64,000 nucleotides of DNA, from the NCBI GenBank assembly GCA_963771075.1, contig CAVYSE010000002.1, positions 14,714 to 78,713 of the forward strand. Direction: 5' to 3'. Source of the stretch: a candidate division FCPU426 bacterium. GTDB lineage: Bacteria; Oederibacteriota; Muellerivitia; Muellerivitales; Muellerivitaceae. The first letter of the stretch is position 1. The number at the start of each line of letters is the position of its first letter. The notes beneath the pieces were generated by a model. It had not been told where the DNA came from, searched no databases, and saw only the letters and a program-made list of their open reading frames with translations. A program made the translations under genes and the position numbers. Below are positions 3,221 to 17,373 of this stretch, in pieces.

Positions 3221-5218
3221 TTAGACCTTTTGGGGGACTGGGGCCATTTGCTCATGTGGGGGTTTTAAAAGCTTGAATTTCTTCACGCCGAACCGGGAAA
3301 CGGTATTCTTCAGCACGCTTTTGGCCGAGAGCTTGTAGACGTAATCGCCCTCGCCCATCTTGCCCGCGTCCCAAATGGAAACGGCATAAGCGCCGCCTTC
3401 CTTTTTTTCCTCCATCTTGTCCACCAGGGCCCCGGAGGCGTCAAAAATCTCCACCATCACGACGCAGTCTTCCTTCAAGAAATAATAGAAGCGAACCGGA
3501 CCAGTGAGGGTTGGGTTCGGGAAAAGCCCCACGTCCTCGATGAAGGTGGAAAATGTTTCCTGGGAAGAAGCCACCGCGATGTCCCGCAAGGCCAAAACGG
3601 GAAACTGGTCGCTCGACAACCGGACCTCATACCGCCCCTCGGGCAGATCGGGGAACTTGAACTGCCCCTTCGCGTCCGTGATGGCCACGGCTCCGTCCCG
3701 GTGGGCCCGGATCACCTCCACCTTGGCTCCCACCACCGGGGTGGTGCCGTCCTTGCGCAGGAACACACCCGCCAGGCTTCCCATGCGCCGGATCACGATG
3801 CGCCTTTTCGCCGTCAAGCTCCCGAGTTTGCCCCTTTTCGCGGCGGGCACCACGTGCAGGTACCAGACGCCCTCGGCGATATCCTTGAACTCGATCGTTT
3901 TTTCCGTGGTAAAGGGGTCCTCTTCCGTGACCCTTTCCACCTCATTGGGGCTCAAGCGGTAATGCACACCGCCACTTTTGAAAGAACCGTCATGGCGGTC
4001 CTCCAATAGAAAGACCGGATGGTGCTGGTTGACCGGTTCGTCCTCCCGGGGGTGGGTCGGGCTCTGCAAAACGGGAGGCGGCATTTCGCCCGCCGCGGTC
4101 ATCACTTTCGCGTGGGCCGGGTCGGAGAGGTTCCCCGCCCTGTCCCGGACCATCACGTGCAAATACCAAACGCCGGGCTCGGGGGCTTTCACCGTGATTT
4201 CATTCTCAGTTATTCGTTGGGCGTCCGCCAGTCCGGGCCGGGTCTCCGGTATTTGGTCAAAGAGGTAATAGTAGGCGTCAAAACCCGAGAGCTTGTTGGC
4301 CGTAAAAAGGTTGAACTGGATCTTGGACGAGGCGTACCAGCACTGGGAATCGGGATGGCTGGAGGAGGTCACCTGGGGCGGCGCGGGCCTTTCCACGTCG
4401 ATTTTCAAACGGTAATGGGCCGATTCCTCGCTTACATTTCCCGCCCGGTCCTTCGCCACCAGGTGGAAATACCAGACCCCGCTTTGCAGGTCCTTGAGTT
4501 CCATGCGCCTGCCGTCCGTGAAGGCCCGGTCCTCCAGGGGCGGGCGGGAATTGGGGCTTTGGTCGATCAGGGTGTAATAACCCGCGATGCCGGTGGCGTC
4601 CGCCGGGGCGTCCCACAGAATCACCGCCAGGGGATTCGAGCTCCAATCCTCGCTTGAGTGGGAAGGGCTGGAAAGCACCGGCACCCCGACCCCGTGGTCC
4701 GAAATACAAACGGAAACCTGGTTCCCCTCGTGCTGTTCGTTTCCCATGCGGTCCACGGCCTGCACGCAATAATAGTAGGCCACACTATCCCTTAATCCTT
4801 CGCCCGGATCCAGGAACGAAACTCCCTTCACTTCCCCGTCCATGGATATCTTTTCCCGGGGCGCTCCCTCGATCCACCGGTAGATTCGGTAAAAGTCGGT
4901 ACCCGAAAGGGTGTCCACCACCGGCGTCCACTTCAACTCGACATCCCCGCCCGCCTTGGGGGTGGCTTTCAATTGGGCCACCGGGGGAGGGGGGAAATAT
5001 CCACCATTACCGAGGCCATTTCCTTGGGCGACCATTCTTCCTGGTTGCCCGCCCCGTCCCGGGCACGGCAACGGAAGGCGTAACGCACCCCGTCCTGGGC
5101 CTGGAAGGTCCCGCCCCGGTCGGCGACCCTTGTCAAGAAGTCCGCCCAGTTGGCTTCGCCCGCCTTCACCTGCACGTCGTAGGATTCGATCCCGCTCAAG
5201 TCGTCCACGCTTTCCCAT
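3221..5218 (-). CDS. C-terminal part of the same giant repeat protein (3 more modules, carboxypeptidase-regulatory-like domain, C-terminal beta-sandwich sorting-type domain)
   Basis: The first ~90 codons of this ORF are G/R/P-rich read-through. Genuine coding sequence resumes in the FN3/module pattern (VWYFHLVAKDRAGNVS, VWYLHVMVRDRAGNLS). It overlaps the upstream ORF by 250 bp in another frame, so the two are read as one gene broken by a frameshift or an assembly error in repeats. Confidence 0.55.
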   Translation of the reverse strand: MGKRGRLERDRILRRAGEGGRSQLGGLLDKGRRPGRDLPGPGRGALRLPLPCPGRGGQPGRMVAQGNGLGNGGYFPPPPVAQLKATPKAGGDVELKWTPVVDTLSGTDFYRIYRWIEGAPREKISMDGEVKGVSFLDPGEGLRDSVAYYYCVQAVDRMGNEQHEGNQVSVCISDHGVGVPVLSSPSHSSEDWSSNPLAVILWDAPADATGIAGYYTLIDQSPNSRPPLEDRAFTDGRRMELKDLQSGVWYFHLVAKDRAGNVSEESAHYRLKIDVERPAPPQVTSSSHPDSQCWYASSKIQFNLFTANKLSGFDAYYYLFDQIPETRPGLADAQRITENEITVKAPEPGVWYLHVMVRDRAGNLSDPAHAKVMTAAGEMPPPVLQSPTHPREDEPVNQHHPVFLLEDRHDGSFKSGGVHYRLSPNEVERVTEEDPFTTEKTIEFKDIAEGVWYLHVVPAAKRGKLGSLTAKRRIVIRRMGSLAGVFLRKDGTTPVVGAKVEVIRAHRDGAVAITDAKGQFKFPDLPEGRYEVRLSSDQFPVLALRDIAVASSQETFSTFIEDVGLFPNPTLTGPVRFYYFLKEDCVVMVEIFDASGALVDKMEEKKEGGAYAVSIWDAGKMGEGDYVYKLSAKSVLKNTVSRFGVKKFKLLKPPHEQMAPVPQKV

Positions 5219-8200
5219 TCCAGGGCCACCTGGGTACGGTCCAAGAGGGGAGGAAGTGTCTTCATGCGGGTTCGAGGAGGCGCCGAGTCGATCTGGATCA
5301 CGTAGTGGGCCGCTTCCCGGCTCAGGTTCCCCACCTTATCCTTGGCCACCAGGTGGAAATAATAACGCCCATCCTTCAAGGCCGGAGTCGTGAGGGAATT
5401 TTCAGTGGTCCACTTTCCCTGGTTGGGCCCGGGTATGGTGTGGGGTTGGGTATCCAGCGAAACGTAATAACCTTCCACCCCGGAAAGTTCCCGGGGCGCT
5501 TCCCAAACCAGTTTGGCGCTGTTGGCCTTGACCCAGGTGTTGGGCGGGTGGGTGGGGCTCTTGACCATCGGGGCTTGGGCTTCCGAATCCACCTGGATTT
5601 TGAAACGCACACAGGGCCCGATGTTTCCCGCCCGATCCTTGGCGATTACGTGCACGAACCAGGTTCCGTCTCCCGGCAAGGTCACCACCGTGCCCCTCGT
5701 GGAGGTAAAGGCCATTTCTTTCAACACCGGCGTCCAGGATTCTTCTTGGTTCGAGAAAAAATAATAGCCCTCGATCCCCGAAAGGTCTTCCGGGTCTTTC
5801 CAAACCATTTCCACCCGGCGGGCGGCGTACCACTTTTCGGGTTGGGGATGGGTGACCGAGGTTACTTCAGGCGCGCCCGTGGTGGTATCCAGCCTGACCC
5901 GGTAAAGGGCAGGATCCTTGCCGATATTTCCCGCGGCATCTTGGGCCACAACGCTCAAGGTAAAGAGCCCGTCGCGGGGTATGTCCACGGAAATTTCATT
6001 TCGCTCGGTGAAATTGGCTTTCCCCGGTTCCGGAATGGGTTTGGGGTCCTCGGAGAAAAGGTAATAAAAACCCGTGACGCCCGACAGGTCGTCCGGCGCG
6101 GTCAGCTTGAACTGGGCCTTCGGGTTGACGGTCCAACGCTCCGGGTCGGGGTGGGTCTCGCTGGTGATAAAGGGCCGGGCCACTTCCGAATCCACATGGA
6201 TGGGATAATGCACGGCCTTCCAATCGGTGTTGCCCGCCTTGTCCTTGGTGGTGATATGAAAATACCAGAGGCCGTCGTCCGTCACTTCGAAGGAGACGGA
6301 CCGCTGGGTCGTGAAAAGCGAGTTGTGGTCGTTGGGAACCGTGTCGGCCTTGCGATCGATGTTGTAGTAGTAGCCCTCGATGCCGGAATGGTCGAAAGGG
6401 TCTTCCCATTGAATCTCGACCCGGCGGCTCTTGTACCACCGTCCCGCCTCTCCGTGGGTGGTGGAAACCACTTGGGGCGGGCTGGCCAGGGTATCCAGGC
6501 AGATCTTAAAGTGGGCCGCGTTGGGCGAGAGGTTCCCGGCCCTATCCTTCGTGCGCGCGTGGGCGTACCAGATGCCGTCCGACAGGTCCTGGAAGGAAAG
6601 CTGGGGCCGCAGGGTATAGAGAGCCGTCTCTTCCTGGGGGAGGGTCTGGGGCTCCTGATCCAAAACATAATAATAGCCTTCCACGCCCGACATGTCGGGA
6701 GGCGGCTGGATGAGAATCTCCACCTGGTTGGTGGGGTACCACTGCTCCTGCTGGGGGTGAGTGGGGGAGGAAAGGGTGGGCGCCAAGGCCTTGGTGTCGA
6801 TCTTGAGACTCAGGTGGGCGGCCGTCACCCCGACATTGCCCGCCAAGTCCTGGGTGGAGACATGGACGAACCAGAGGCCGTCTTCCAACGGTCCCAAAGA
6901 GATCCGGGAATCGGAAACAAATTGACCATTGCCCGGCCCAGGCACGGTCAGGGCCTCCCGGTCCGCCTTCACGAAATAGCCCTTCACCCCCGAAAGGTCC
7001 TCGGGTTCGGACCAGGTGACCACGGGCGAAGGGTTAGCCACCCACTTTTCACGGTCCGGATGGGTGTCGCTGTAAATTTCCGGCGGGGGCGGGGCTAGGG
7101 TGTCAATCTGGACCTGGTAATGGGTGGCCCGGTTGCCAACGTTGCCCGCGTCATCCATGCCCACCACGTGCAGGTACCAGACCCCGTCCGTCACCGGCAG
7201 GATCAAGCGTCGTTCTTCCGTATAGATGGCCTGGGGAGGCTGGGGAAGGGTTTCCGGATTTTGGTCCAGCTGGTAGAAATAGCCAGCCAAAGGCGAGGAG
7301 GGATGCAGTAAAAATTCGACTTGATGCGTGCTTTCCCATTTGTCGTGTTCCTCGTGCGTTGGGCAGGAAATGTCGGGAGGCAGGACCGGCGGGGTCGTGA
7401 AGGAAGAAACCTGGCTGGCCACCAGGGAGCTCGAACGGTTGGCGCTGACCACCCGGTACCGGTATTCGGTTTCCGCCCTCAAGTCGCTTAAGGCAAATCG
7501 GTGCCTAAGTCTCGCGGATTTGTCTGCCACCGAGCGGGACAGTTCTTCCCGATCCCCCGCGATCCCGTAAAAAAGCTCGGAAGCGGCCGAAAGGTCGGTG
7601 GTCCAGGTCAACAGGGCGGATGAGGAGGTCAGTTTTTCCACCTGGAGTTCGGTGATCTCGGGGATGCCCGCCATGTCGAAGGTGGAGCGCAAAAGTGCCC
7701 CCCCGTTTTCGGTGGCGGCGTAGAGATAATCGTTGAAGACCGTAAAGGCCCGCACCCCCTCCTCGTCGCTGGAGTAGGCGGAAACCCAGTTCTCGCCGTC
7801 ATGGGTCTTGAGGATACGGCCCGAGTTGCCGGTGCCCGCGTAGAGGGCGTTCTCGTAAACTTCCATGCAATAGAGGTTCAACTCCCGGCTGGTTTCATAG
7901 ACCGCCTGCCAATCCCGCCCGTTCTGGGTGCGGAGGATCTTGATGCCCTTGGGACTGGAGGTGCCCGCGTAGAGGGCGCCGTTGAACTCGTGGAAGCATT
8001 GGATGAAATGCTGACCGGTCGCGGAAACCTCTTCCCAGTTAAGCCCGTCATGGGTGGCGAAGATCAGTCCGCTGGGATAGGTTCCCGCGTAAAGCCGGTT
8101 CTTAAAGATACCAAAACATGTGACGGCGACTTCGCTCAGGATGCCCACGGTGTTCCATTGCAGGCCGTCGAAGGCCACCACCCTTCCCTGCGAGCTGGTG

Positions 8201-14029: not shown

Positions 14030-14242
14030 ATAGCTCCCTAATGAAATTCTAAACCAACTTCCAACACGAAGACACAAAGGGCACTCAGTTCACAAACAGA
14101 CAATCTTTAGTTTTAACCAACTTTTCAAATGATCTTCGTGTCTTAATGGCTTTGACCCCTTTGGCCTTTAGGCCAAAGAATACGGGACCATATCATCCTC
14201 TTTATATCTTTTATTGATAGAGGGTATGTGTTTTTTTGGGTT

Positions 14243-16876
14243 TTAGTCTTCCACGATGAAGTTCTTCAATTTAGTCTTTTTCAGCAGTTCCTTCGAGGCT
14301 CTTTGCGCCGCGGCGTGGTCGGGATAATCCCCTACCCGGATCTTATAAAGGGGATAGGCCATATCCTCGGTCTTGACCTTCAAAACCTTGGGTTTATACC
14401 CGGCCTTTTCCAGCTGTTTAAGCGTTGGGGCCATAAACCGGGTCCGGCTGTAAACCCCGACCTGGATATGGAAAGGGGCCGCCGCGCTGATGGTATCGTC
14501 CGATTCCGCCTCTTCCTCACCGGTCGCCTGGATCGCGGGGGTGGGGTTCTCCGCCATAACCGTATTTCCCGCGGAAGCCGGGGCCGCTGGGACAACTGCC
14601 TCCGGAAGTTCGGTCGGGGTAGGCAGGGCCATCATCACAATGGGAGTCAGCTCGGGGTTGAGGCGCTCCATCGCGGACATCCTCTGAAGGGCATCCTCCG
14701 TTTCCAGTGCCCGGGGAAACTGGGTCGCCAGGGTGGCGTAAGCGGCGTGGGCCTGGGGTATCTTGGTTTCCAATTCATAAAGCCGCCCGAGGCGATAATA
14801 AACAAGGTTCATTTCCAAGAATTGGGGGTAGCGGTCCAGGACCTTCAGATATTGTTTCTCGGCCATGGGATAAAGCCTTAATTTGACATAGGTATTGCCC
14901 GCCCCCAGCAAGGCCTTGGGCGCCCAGGGACTGTCCGAGGCGTTGTCCGCCACCTTGATGAACTGGGCCATGGCTTCAGGGTATTTATTGAGGGAATAGA
15001 GGGAGCAAGCGTACCAGTAGCGGGCTTCAGGCGCGGAGGGGCTGTCAGGATGGGTCTTCAGGAATTCCTCGTAAGTATGCGCGGCGTCGCCATATTTATC
15101 CGCGAGATAATAACGGGCCCCCAGGTCCTTTTGGGCCTCCTCGCCTTCCGGTTTGTCGGAATACTGCTTGGCCAGTTCGGTGAATTGCTTGGTGGATTTG
15201 TTGAAATCCTGCTCCATTCGGGCCAGCATGAGCTTGGCCTGGGGGATCATCTGGTCCATGGGATGTTCGGCCACGAACTTGGAGAAGGAATCCCGGGCCT
15301 GGTCGTAGTTTTTCCGGTTGAAATAGTCCTTCGCCTTGTCGAAGAGGGATTGGGAATTATCCGCGACGGCCCCGATGGGGGTCGCGCCGGTCGTTTGGGC
15401 CATCAACATGGCCGGAGCCACAAGCAAGGCAAAGATTAACAAAAGCACGCCCACCCTTTGTCCGTACAGGCTGGCGATCTTGCTTTTTTCCACCTTTACT
15501 CGCACCTTGTCCCCGGCCTTCAAACCCTTCGCCGGAAAGACCACCGTCCGGTTTTGCCGGGTCTTGCCGTAATAGGCGCCAGGCGTCTTGTCCGCCGGGC
15601 CTTCCACCATGACCTCTTCCACGCGACCGACACGGGAAAGGTGCCGGTCGGCGGCGTGCTTCCAGGCCTTCTCGTTCAAGCGGGCCAGGCGTTCGTCCTT
15701 CACTTCCTCCGGCACCTGGTGAAGCATGCGGGCTGCGGGGGTTCCGAGCCTCGGGGAATACTTGAAACTATAGACCAGGTCGTAACGCACCTCATCCAAA
15801 AGCTTGAGGGTGCCCTCGAAATCCTCATCGGTCTCGCCTGGGAACCCCACGATCAGGTCGGTGGTAAGAGCCAGTTCGGGGATGGCCTTGTGAAGGGTTT
15901 CCACCCGGTTCAAGTAATGGGCCACGGTGTATTTTCGGTTCATGCGTTTCAAGACGGTGTCCGACCCGCATTGGACGGGAAGGTGGATCATCTCGCAAAC
16001 GCTGGGCGTCTCAGCCATGGCGGCCACCAAGTCGTCGGAAAGGTCCAGGGGGTGGGACGTCATGAACCGCACCCGCTCGATGCCCGGGACGGCCCCCACT
16101 TGGCGCAGAAGATCGGGGAAAGAAACCGGCCTCTCGTTGCTTAGGGCCAGCCCTGTTTCAATATTGTTTTTTTTGCGGGAACTGGGCTTGCCTAGTTGTC
16201 CATTTTCCGATTTTTGAATCGGTGAACTAGATAAGCCATAGGAATTCACGTTCTGGCCCAGAAGCATCACTTCCTTCACCCCCGCCTGGGCGATGCGGGT
16301 GACCTCGTCCAGGATGTCCTCGGGAGGGCGGGAAACTTCACGGCCCCGGGTGAAGGGAACCACGCAGAAGGTGCAGAACTTGTCACAGCCCTTCATGATC
16401 TCCACGAAGGCCCGGTGGGGGGCGGATAAACGATTAGGATCGTTCGCCGGGAAATAAGCGGGGTCAAAATCGGCCAGCACCTGGGGTCCCGCGCCCTGGG
16501 AGGCCTTGGCGATGGCCCCGACTGCCTTGGGATATTGGTCCGGCCCCAAAACCAGGTCCACCTGCGGGGCGCGGTCGATGATGTTTTCCTTGTGGCTGGT
16601 GGCCATACATCCCAACACCCCCAGGACCCGGCCGGGCTTGCCGTTTTTCCAGTCGGTCAGTTCCCCCAGGCGGGAAAAGATCTTGTCCTCGGCGTGCTGG
16701 CGCACCGAGCAGGTGTTGAAGAGGATGACGTCCGCCTGGGCGCTGTCAGGCGTCAGGGAGTAACCCTCTTGGATCAACAGGCCCGCGACATGGTCCGACT
16801 CGACCACGTTGGACTGGCAGCCCAATGTTTCGAGATAGACTTTTTTTTGCGGATGAGGATTTAAGGTGATTTCCAT
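14243..16876 (-). CDS. miaB: MiaB-like tRNA methylthiotransferase (radical SAM + TRAM) reading through, without a stop, into a TM helix, TPR repeats (YbgF/CpoB-like) and a C-terminal SPOR domain
   Basis: Residues 1-465: MTTase N-domain, radical SAM CxxxCxxC (GCDKFCTFC) and TRAM (DKVRVKVEKSKIASLYGQRVG). This is followed by VLLLIFALLVAPAMLMA (TM or signal-like), TPR/YbgF-like repeats, and PFHIQVGVYSRTRFMAPTLKQLEKAGYKPKV...YKIRVGDY (SPOR-like). There is also a ~25-aa low-GC insertion after NVNSYG relative to canonical MiaB. Confidence 0.75.
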   Translation of the reverse strand: MEITLNPHPQKKVYLETLGCQSNVVESDHVAGLLIQEGYSLTPDSAQADVILFNTCSVRQHAEDKIFSRLGELTDWKNGKPGRVLGVLGCMATSHKENIIDRAPQVDLVLGPDQYPKAVGAIAKASQGAGPQVLADFDPAYFPANDPNRLSAPHRAFVEIMKGCDKFCTFCVVPFTRGREVSRPPEDILDEVTRIAQAGVKEVMLLGQNVNSYGLSSSPIQKSENGQLGKPSSRKKNNIETGLALSNERPVSFPDLLRQVGAVPGIERVRFMTSHPLDLSDDLVAAMAETPSVCEMIHLPVQCGSDTVLKRMNRKYTVAHYLNRVETLHKAIPELALTTDLIVGFPGETDEDFEGTLKLLDEVRYDLVYSFKYSPRLGTPAARMLHQVPEEVKDERLARLNEKAWKHAADRHLSRVGRVEEVMVEGPADKTPGAYYGKTRQNRTVVFPAKGLKAGDKVRVKVEKSKIASLYGQRVGVLLLIFALLVAPAMLMAQTTGATPIGAVADNSQSLFDKAKDYFNRKNYDQARDSFSKFVAEHPMDQMIPQAKLMLARMEQDFNKSTKQFTELAKQYSDKPEGEEAQKDLGARYYLADKYGDAAHTYEEFLKTHPDSPSAPEARYWYACSLYSLNKYPEAMAQFIKVADNASDSPWAPKALLGAGNTYVKLRLYPMAEKQYLKVLDRYPQFLEMNLVYYRLGRLYELETKIPQAHAAYATLATQFPRALETEDALQRMSAMERLNPELTPIVMMALPTPTELPEAVVPAAPASAGNTVMAENPTPAIQATGEEEAESDDTISAAAPFHIQVGVYSRTRFMAPTLKQLEKAGYKPKVLKVKTEDMAYPLYKIRVGDYPDHAAAQRASKELLKKTKLKNFIVED

Positions 16877-17088
16877 AAATTCTTTATGTTTTTTTCAGTG
16901 CCTGGGCGTCTGGGTGTTTCAAACTTTTTTCGGGATTCTGATTGTAAAGGCTTTGGAGGTAAGTGGCAACGCCCCTCAAGCTCCAACCCCAAAGGACAAA
17001 GGCCCCCAAGCGAAACTTCAGGAATTAATCACCCATTTAAGGTCAACCTTTGTGTACTTCGTGTTCTTCGGGGGCGAGAGATGTTTTT

Positions 17089-17373
17089 TCAGTGGTGAAG
17101 ATGAAGCACTTGGTAAGCAACCCAAAGAGCGGCCAGGAGGATGATCGCCCTAAATATCCACCGGGTCCGGTTGACCCCCGCTGGCACGCCTCCCTTGGTC
17201 TTGGGTTTGGGAAAATACTGTTCGCTCAATTGAACGGGGGTAAAGGGCTTGCCTTCCTCGTCGTAGACGATCGGCAGACTGGCCCCGCAGTTCCCGCAGA
17301 TTTTGTTCTCGGGAATGTTGAACATCCCGCACCGCAGGCATTTGACATCCAGGTTTTTAGCGTGAAGTTCCAT
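17089..17373 (-). CDS. small zinc-ribbon (CxxC...CxxC) protein with a C-terminal TM helix
   Basis: CLRCGMFNIPENKICGNCG followed by the hydrophobic tail IFRAIILLAALWVAYQVL. Confidence 0.4.
   Translation of the reverse strand: MELHAKNLDVKCLRCGMFNIPENKICGNCGASLPIVYDEEGKPFTPVQLSEQYFPKPKTKGGVPAGVNRTRWIFRAIILLAALWVAYQVLHLHH

Follow-up and report, generated by a model that had tools for sequence, protein, structure and literature searches.

How could one uninterrupted reading frame supply both a cytoplasmic tRNA-modifying enzyme and a periplasmic cell-envelope module? The question is raised by a gene in the 64,000-nucleotide stretch of a candidate division FCPU426 genome analyzed here (contig CAVYSE010000002.1 of GenBank assembly GCA_963771075.1; hereafter the window). 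In this gene the sequence of MiaB, a radical-SAM methylthiotransferase of the cytoplasm responsible for ms2i6A37 in tRNA, continues in frame into a hydrophobic segment, tetratricopeptide repeats (TPR), and a C-terminal SPOR domain. The 877-residue fused reading frame is genuine. We regard it as probable, with some reserve, that it arose by a lineage-specific in-frame fusion, in which MiaB would stay in the cytoplasm while the TPR-SPOR module would be exported via an internal signal peptide and probably be split off by type I signal peptidase (SPase I). Database proteins and loci used for comparison are designated by P and L numbers, respectively.

Architecture of the fused gene

The open reading frame (ORF) listing of the window gave a single uninterrupted ORF at 14243-16876, with no in-frame stop codon between MiaB and TPR-SPOR. 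A fused frame of MiaB, hydrophobic segment, TPR, and SPOR had been described in the initial annotation, and the description is borne out by this listing together with the Pfam and NCBIfam matches. The features of the gene are as follows.

14243..16876, reverse strand: fused ORF with ATG start (877 aa plus stop), composed of MiaB, a putative internal signal-peptide core, TPR, linker, and SPOR
15449..16876, reverse strand: MiaB moiety (aa 1-476)
16843-16544, reverse strand: UPF0004 (Pfam, aa 12-111)
16405-15797, reverse strand: Radical_SAM (Pfam, aa 158-360)
16127..16234, reverse strand: lineage-variable loop insertion after NVNSYG (aa 215-250, 45% GC)
15637-15458, reverse strand: TRAM (Pfam PF01938, 36 bits, aa 414-473)
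15398..15460, reverse strand: fusion junction Q473-A493, QR-VG-VLLLIFALLVAPAMLMA, predicted former signal-peptide h- and c-region, now internal
15400-15398 (A493) and 15397-15395 (Q494), reverse strand: residues on either side of the predicted SPase I site, where orthologue signal peptides end in L-x-A/S before QT
14660..15361, reverse strand: TPR region (aa 506-739; several Pfam TPR families at aa 507-720), with 12 helices forming ~5-6 hairpins plus a capping helix in an AlphaFold (AF2) model
14474..14659, reverse strand: disordered Pro/Ala/Thr/Glu-rich linker (aa 740-801, ~60 residues, predicted local distance difference test (pLDDT) <50)
14246..14479, reverse strand: SPOR domain (aa 800-877; Pfam match at aa 800-875), with a beta-alpha-beta-beta-alpha-beta fold

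Judged by its sequence, the MiaB moiety is complete up to the junction, and this holds for every MiaB property that could be computed. The NCBIfam MiaB equivalog TIGR01574 scored 464.2 bits against a cut-off of 355.3, its match running to aa 473 (position 435 of the 437 in the profile), the TRAM domain is present, and all six Fe-S ligands are kept (C20, C56, and C90 in UPF0004; C164, C168, and C171 in the radical-SAM CxxxCxxC motif). The B. uniformis MiaB structure 7MJZ (457 aa) could be aligned as far as window residue 475, equivalent to chain residue 455, and the hydrophobic stretch, which runs from aa 477, therefore begins where a normal MiaB ends. In comparison with solved MiaB structures (7MJV and 7MJZ) and TIGR01574, the moiety is alike in its full-length match, both Fe-S motifs, TRAM, and an end no more than 2 residues from the solved C-terminus, but the window protein has a loop of ~28 additional residues after NVNSYG, a 400-residue C-terminal extension, and no stop of its own. 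The low-GC insertion after NVNSYG that was reported initially is real: the loop (45% GC, against 60% in the MiaB part) extends ~28 residues beyond that of 7MJZ. It is an insertion hot spot, with a homologous insert of ~25 aa common to the window and L001 and a shorter one in L011. The insert is absent from most FCPU426 MiaBs, and MiaBs of Candidatus Omnitrophota have unrelated inserts at the same loop.

In the C-terminal part, the YbgF-type TPR model TIGR02795 (NCBIfam) matched aa 579-685 with 104.1 bits against a cut-off of 90.1, and SPOR (PF05036) scored 25.8 bits against a gathering cut-off of 21. Modeled with AlphaFold (mean pLDDT 82.5), the last 401 residues form a hydrophobic helix, 12 TPR-type helices, the linker, and a canonical SPOR domain, whose strands and helices lie at model residues 326-400 (pLDDT ~82-94). 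An earlier count of six or more TPR units was therefore roughly right, the modeled helices giving ~5-6 hairpins and the cap. A Foldseek search with this model returned generic TPR matches only. The best PDB sequence match was CpoB/YbgF (6G5S, 2XEV), with which the module shares the TPR block recognized by TIGR02795. Unlike CpoB/YbgF, it gave only 31.5 bits with the CpoB equivalog NF008068 (cut-off 383), has no N-terminal coiled coil (hairpins of the TPR type are modeled from the beginning), carries extra TPRs and a SPOR domain, and lacks tol-pal neighbors; miaB and mutS adjoin it in the window and in every FCPU426 locus. With FtsN, DedD, DamX, and RlpA it has in common a C-terminal SPOR domain of ribonucleoprotein (RNP)-like fold on the periplasmic side of a membrane-spanning or signal segment. 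Those proteins, however, have short cytoplasmic tails or lipoprotein anchors rather than a 476-residue enzyme, and none of them has the TPR block of the window protein.

Reproducibility of the junction

An exact look-up of the window protein found it not on record, owing to one K/R difference from a near-identical database protein of 877 aa (P0001). P0001 is encoded on L003 (GCA_052915985.1, a 9.6-kb NCBI contig) and on L004 (Logan assembly of run ERR10755947, a 6-kb contig), which are 99.906% and 99.98% identical to the window. The differences comprise four synonymous sites in miaB, the single K/R exchange in the TPR part, and a few intergenic positions, and none lies at the junction. Because three assemblies with single-nucleotide polymorphisms (SNPs) of their own have an identical junction, a sequencing error is unlikely, and the loss of a stop codon in this way, considered in the initial annotation, is not supported: relative to two-gene loci the window shows a net loss of 17 nt rather than a single indel.

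Scans of GTDB representatives and JGI metagenomes yielded no further copies of the fused species and no closer relative. A homology search with the C-terminal part only returned stand-alone proteins; even P0001 was unlisted, so that fusions are undetectable in that way. Two related loci, L013 (~3523-3750) and L007, have frameshifted or truncated miaB and mutS calls. Both are on contigs of the 'contig_N' type, probably from long-read metagenome-assembled genomes (MAGs); the frameshifts look like assembly indels, and frame evidence from single MAG loci of this kind needs care.

Two-gene ancestry in FCPU426

Approximately 20 distinct FCPU426 loci have miaB, then a TPR-SPOR gene, then usually mutS, with the first two genes separate in all of them. 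Unfused FCPU426 MiaBs stop 4-14 residues past the (N)LYG motif, and the TPR-SPOR gene has a separate start and encodes a classical signal peptide, with K/R before the hydrophobic core in 35 of the 39 stand-alone orthologues analyzed (the four exceptions are truncated start calls). The four closest relatives have a TTGA in which the stop of miaB and the TTG start of the next gene overlap, with a GGAG(G) Shine-Dalgarno (SD) sequence 7-8 nt upstream. A stop codon after TRAM, which the initial annotation would have taken as evidence against a fusion, was thus found in orthologous loci, where it bears on the two-gene ancestor only and not on this lineage.

The window MiaB is 84-86% identical to those of the relatives in which a full-length MiaB could be compared (L005, L011). 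From the EKSK codons to the mature N-terminus (QT) there are 99 nt in the window versus 116 nt in L005, which is the net loss of 17 nt, and the alignment of the two has a 20-nt gap covering the SD, TTG, and TGA. Missing from the window lineage are the MiaB tail (the last ~7 codons) together with its stop, the SD and TTG of the downstream gene, and the n-region with its positive charge; the h-region and the L-x-A/QT site have been kept. Neither half appears to be evolving faster than in the unfused sisters, and the identities give no indication of relaxed constraint: identity to outgroups is 70.0% for the window MiaB versus 71.2 and 69.3% for those of unfused sisters, and 48.1% for its TPR-SPOR part versus 47.1-48.9%.

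The hydrophobic stretch VLLLIFALLVAPAMLMA occupies aa 477-493 (nt 15448-15398), and the segment is 17-19 residues long, the uncharged run from V475 to A493 amounting to 19. Its end, VLLLIFALLVAPAM-LMA/Q, has an h-region followed by small uncharged residues in the -3/-1 pattern, at the place where relatives have LLA/QT, LSA/QT, or LHS/QT. The segment first annotated as transmembrane (TM) is thus what remains of the signal peptide of the downstream gene, namely its h- and c-region, and the predicted cleavage site is intact. It starts at aa 475-477 and not at an N-terminus, and it is preceded by MiaB residues R474, K466, and K464 rather than by a Met or a K/R n-region of its own. The description of a possible separate product as lipoprotein-like did not hold, since the lipobox Cys is lacking and there is no Cys at aa 470-520. 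A programmed frameshift at GAAAAAAGC was considered and rejected: a -1 slip would need the heptamer in another register, its letters represent the conserved EKSK codons, and the fused frame requires no shift.

Fusions in Candidatus Omnitrophota

No close fused relative emerged from an exhaustive search of 1.84 billion representative proteins. Among the matches, however, was P0187, a 689-residue protein consisting of MiaB, a hydrophobic segment, TPRs, and SPOR, which is present on 18 contigs of up to 504 kb and whose MiaB part is ~40% identical to that of the window. With P0187 as the query, at least 30 clusters (90% identity) were recovered in Omnitrophota that have the same architecture and 39-91% identity to P0187, among them P0333-P0358; some of these are encoded on contigs 200-500 kb in length. 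These proteins are named plain 'MiaB' at NCBI, and their genes head a miaB - miaA - hflX - hrcA - grpE - dnaK operon. In fusions that contain TRAM, GHTLxG leads into a hydrophobic run of ~12-15 residues and, past a helix breaker, into [A/V]-x-A, which is present in 27 of 27. In those without TRAM, the hydrophobic segment ends in [L/A/V/I]-F-A.

Several Omnitrophota loci differ in the state of the junction. An unfused TPR-SPOR gene lies between miaB and miaA in L066, overlapping miaB by 20 nt, and in L064, an Omnitrophota-type locus with a stand-alone MiaB, miaB is followed directly by miaA. The stop-less in-frame junction of L065 still contains AAGGAG, ATG, and the n-region MRR; an in-frame ATG is left in L063; and in L067 an ATG follows AAGGAG at a distance of 11 nt. 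Between the end of TRAM and the start of the h-region of L060 there is no canonical start, the first being a TTG inside the h-region, and export in L060 must therefore use the fused chain. Internal starts at the junction are not conserved across the Omnitrophota set.

The Omnitrophota fusions resemble the window protein in having UPF0004, radical SAM, TRAM (where present), a short hydrophobic segment ending small-x-small, YbgF-like TPRs, and SPOR, as well as in the position of the join, right past the last TRAM strand (...GHTLxG there, ...SLYGQ in the window), and in their derivation from overlapping adjacent genes (L066). The TPR-SPOR modules of FCPU426 and Omnitrophota align colinearly with 28-32% identity. 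They differ in length (~225 aa in Omnitrophota versus ~384 aa in the window) and in what lies downstream (miaA-hflX-hrcA versus mutS). Some Omnitrophota members are without TRAM, and the fusion has been kept there over deep divergence, whereas in FCPU426 it is found in one species-level lineage. The identities of the window MiaB, 84-86% to unfused sisters but ~40% to P0187, are not those expected from common descent of the fused state, and since all sampled FCPU426 relatives are unfused, the FCPU426 fusion is of independent origin. The route from overlapping neighbors to a fusion has thus been taken independently in FCPU426 and Omnitrophota.

Other features of the Omnitrophota set were recorded. 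The fusions without TRAM (P0362, P0364, P0370, P0371, P0391, and P0409; L063 3232-5082) have the hydrophobic segment directly after the radical-SAM C-terminal helix, and the gene is still upstream of miaA; a MiaB lacking its RNA-binding domain is unexpected. A gene for a GIY-YIG domain is directly upstream of miaB in some Omnitrophota and is fused to it in frame in some records (P0348, P0433, P0451; L067 3775-4014). Long MiaB matches outside this set (P0003-P0008, P0034, P0084) were set aside as irrelevant, as they were either two methylthiotransferase units per ORF or low-quality ORFs. In P0004, P0005, P0006, and P0008 (870-882 aa), a MiaB-like and an MtaB-like unit share one ORF, and the likeness in length to the window protein is coincidental.

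Predicted export and processing

In the proposed sequence of events, the ancestor had miaB and a gene for a Sec-exported periplasmic TPR-SPOR protein next to each other and translationally coupled. The 17-nt net loss at the overlapping stop and start would have removed the MiaB tail, stop, SD, TTG start, and n-region, leaving the h-region and cleavage site to survive. As miaB now has no stop, MiaB can be made only as the 877-residue chain. MiaB would fold in the cytoplasm, with the basic residues K464, K466, and R474 replacing the missing n-region; the hydrophobic segment would enter the Sec translocon N-in/C-out as an internal signal sequence; and the TPR-SPOR module would be exported to the periplasm. 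The topology, a cytoplasmic enzyme linked to a periplasmic module, had been called possible in the initial annotation and is plausible. Less certain than the topology is the last step, in which SPase I probably cuts after A493, releasing a mature TPR-SPOR protein identical to the product of the ancestral separate gene and leaving MiaB with a short C-terminal membrane tail. The main argument in favor of cleavage is the conserved [A/V]-x-A motif in Omnitrophota, as an uncleaved anchor needs no such motif. The same merger has been fixed in a second phylum, which makes it probable that the fused gene is functional, one gene supplying two proteins, rather than erroneous.

Several points weigh against this interpretation. 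The FCPU426 fusion comes from one species-level lineage only (three contigs, at least 99.9% identical), too narrow a sample to reveal selection for the fused state. The intact cleavage site could be mere inheritance, its loss still to come, and the predicted SPase I site would follow a folded domain of 476 residues. Recognition of the h-region and of the -3/-1 pattern relied on visual inspection and Kyte-Doolittle scores. Finally, in-frame GTG and TTG codons occur behind SD-like strings at the junction, and some TPR-SPOR could be made independently. The codons concerned are as follows.

15440..15454, reverse strand: putative in-frame starts GTG 15454-15452, GTG 15448-15446, and TTG 15442-15440, behind the SD-like AAAGGGTGG
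15491..15493, reverse strand: in-frame GTG (V462) with AAGGTG 9 nt upstream, a speculative start that would yield M-EKSKIASLYGQR plus the h-region

Alternative explanations

If the hydrophobic segment were an uncleaved signal-anchor, the fusion would be real and the product an intact 877-residue bitopic inner-membrane protein, tethering MiaB to the membrane and, via SPOR, possibly to the septum. Such a protein would have the predicted N-in/C-out topology with a large cytoplasmic N-domain, which is common among bitopic inner-membrane proteins; the 19 uncharged residues V475-A493 are close to the length of a TM helix; and the loss of TRAM in some Omnitrophota fusions could mean that MiaB has a role in a new membrane-bound context. 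We nevertheless consider an anchor unlikely, as the [A/V]-x-A motif found in all 27 Omnitrophota fusions with TRAM, the helix breaker, and h-regions of ~12-15 residues are signal-peptide features, and the L-x-A/QT of the window matches orthologues with ordinary N-terminal signal peptides. It is more doubtful still that TPR-SPOR is made mainly from an internal start (GTG 15454 or 15448, TTG 15442, or GTG 15493), the long fusion being a tolerated by-product. The GTG codons at the junction and the SD-like string pointed out in the initial annotation are indeed present (AAAGGGTGG, in addition to AAGGTG), and junctions with a potential start are also seen in L065 (AAGGAG, ATG, and MRR without a stop), L063, and L067. 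Products starting at 15454, 15448, or 15442 would, however, have a signal peptide without the charged n-region of 35 of the 39 orthologues, and the GTG at V462 has no conservation in relatives. The ancestral SD and start lie within the deleted stretch, L060 and the Omnitrophota set as a whole speak against conserved internal starts, and RNA structure at the junction is unremarkable (local fold z = -1.9). Even if internal initiation did occur, MiaB would still be made as a fusion.

Two further explanations would deny the fusion either reality or function, and both are very improbable. An assembly or sequencing artefact, with two genes and a stop after TRAM in the true genome, would agree with the two genes seen in all other FCPU426 loci, with the short homopolymers (AAA, GGG, TTTT) at the junction, and with the frameshifts in some related long-read MAGs (L013). 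Against it, the junction is the same in three assemblies that differ in their SNPs (one of which, from Logan, was built from a single run), and the change is not a 1-nt indel but a net loss of 17 nt in which the start and n-region have gone; if 1 nt were corrected, MiaB would end in ...GWACFC* and the downstream gene would still be without a normal start or n-region. The fusion might also be a recent neutral or slightly harmful accident, with one or both halves poorly working and decaying, as could be supposed from its confinement to one lineage and the lack of closer sampled relatives. Both halves, however, have intact domains above curated cut-offs with all Fe-S cysteines kept, neither is rate-accelerated, the three haplotypes differ by synonymous or conservative SNPs, and the same design is stable in Omnitrophota. 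For the fused gene we retain the interpretation of a lineage-specific fusion exported via an internal signal peptide.

Genomic context

A sigma-70-like promoter match was located upstream of the miaB start, together with two genes.

16941..16969, reverse strand: sigma-70-like match (TTGCCA, 17-nt spacer, TACAAT), a consensus match only
17089-17373, reverse strand: conserved 94-aa zinc-ribbon protein with a C-terminal TM segment
17512-18768, reverse strand: 418-aa TPR protein

Promoter-like matches in the scan were no more numerous than in shuffled sequence, and the consensus scan found no promoter-like or terminator-like sites inside the fused gene on its own strand. The zinc-ribbon and TPR genes precede miaB in the window, L001-L005, and L007 (the loci with upstream genes listed) and may be part of the same conserved cluster. 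Downstream, the TPR-SPOR gene of L001 is separated from mutS by a 167-aa Sel1-repeat gene (6938-7441); the window lacks this gene at the corresponding place, where the TPR-SPOR part and mutS are only 165 bp apart (14078-14242). The 347-bp spacer between miaB and the TPR-SPOR gene of L001 is filled (5375-5640) by G+C-rich palindromic elements resembling repetitive extragenic palindromes (REP) or miniature inverted-repeat transposable elements (MITE) and by two CCACGGGCTAYGCCCGTGG hairpins. The translation typical of these elements, PHPxPLPxGERGE, occurs in frame within the MiaB loops of several Omnitrophota proteins (P0346, P0348, P0356).

The septal-peptidoglycan-related gene adjoins mutS in the window and L001 (miaB - TPR-SPOR - mutS) and miaA - hflX in L060 and L066. 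E. coli has a superoperon amiB-mutL-miaA-hfq-hflX, and the likeness between the two neighborhoods may be a coincidence or may reflect an old conserved neighborhood.

Precedent and significance

A literature search found no papers combining MiaB with a SPOR domain, the FCPU426 literature consisted of community surveys, and nothing relevant was found on Omnitrophota, SPOR, and cell division. The fused architecture is present in public databases as 'MiaB' but appears to be undescribed, and with the window a second phylum is added in which it originated independently. In principle its closest analogue is FbcH of Bradyrhizobium japonicum, a cytochrome b-c1 precursor reported by Thony-Meyer et al. 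(1991) to be split at an internal signal peptide. There, too, one gene reportedly gives two proteins, with an internal signal-peptide-like segment exporting the C-terminal part and signal peptidase making the cut. The N-terminal part of FbcH is reportedly a polytopic membrane protein of the same complex, whereas that of the window protein is a soluble cytoplasmic enzyme not known to be connected with the exported part, and its cleavage is a prediction. Only a few examples of 'one gene, two compartments' are known in bacteria, all of them in membrane complexes.

As the miaB and TPR-SPOR genes are adjacent in two phyla and have been fused at least twice, a functional link between them can be conceived, although we think it improbable. 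The fusion could place or time MiaB at the inner membrane or division site, MiaB and the periplasmic module would then form a single trans-envelope unit that couples translation or tRNA-modification status to septal peptidoglycan remodeling, and MiaBs without TRAM could have been re-purposed for a non-tRNA or membrane-proximal substrate.

For annotation, the finding means that fusions named plain 'MiaB' may be wrongly split or 'repaired' by gene callers and curators. If export and processing occur as proposed, a soluble enzyme of the cytoplasm and a periplasmic protein that share one frame would be parted by signal peptidase. The passage from overlap to fusion has occurred at the same residue in two phyla, and the series of overlapping genes, stop-less junction with a start, and full fusion would show how the n-region of a signal peptide can be lost without loss of function. 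Conservation of the miaB/TPR-SPOR linkage flags an uncharacterized family of periplasmic proteins and a possible link between tRNA modification and the cell envelope.

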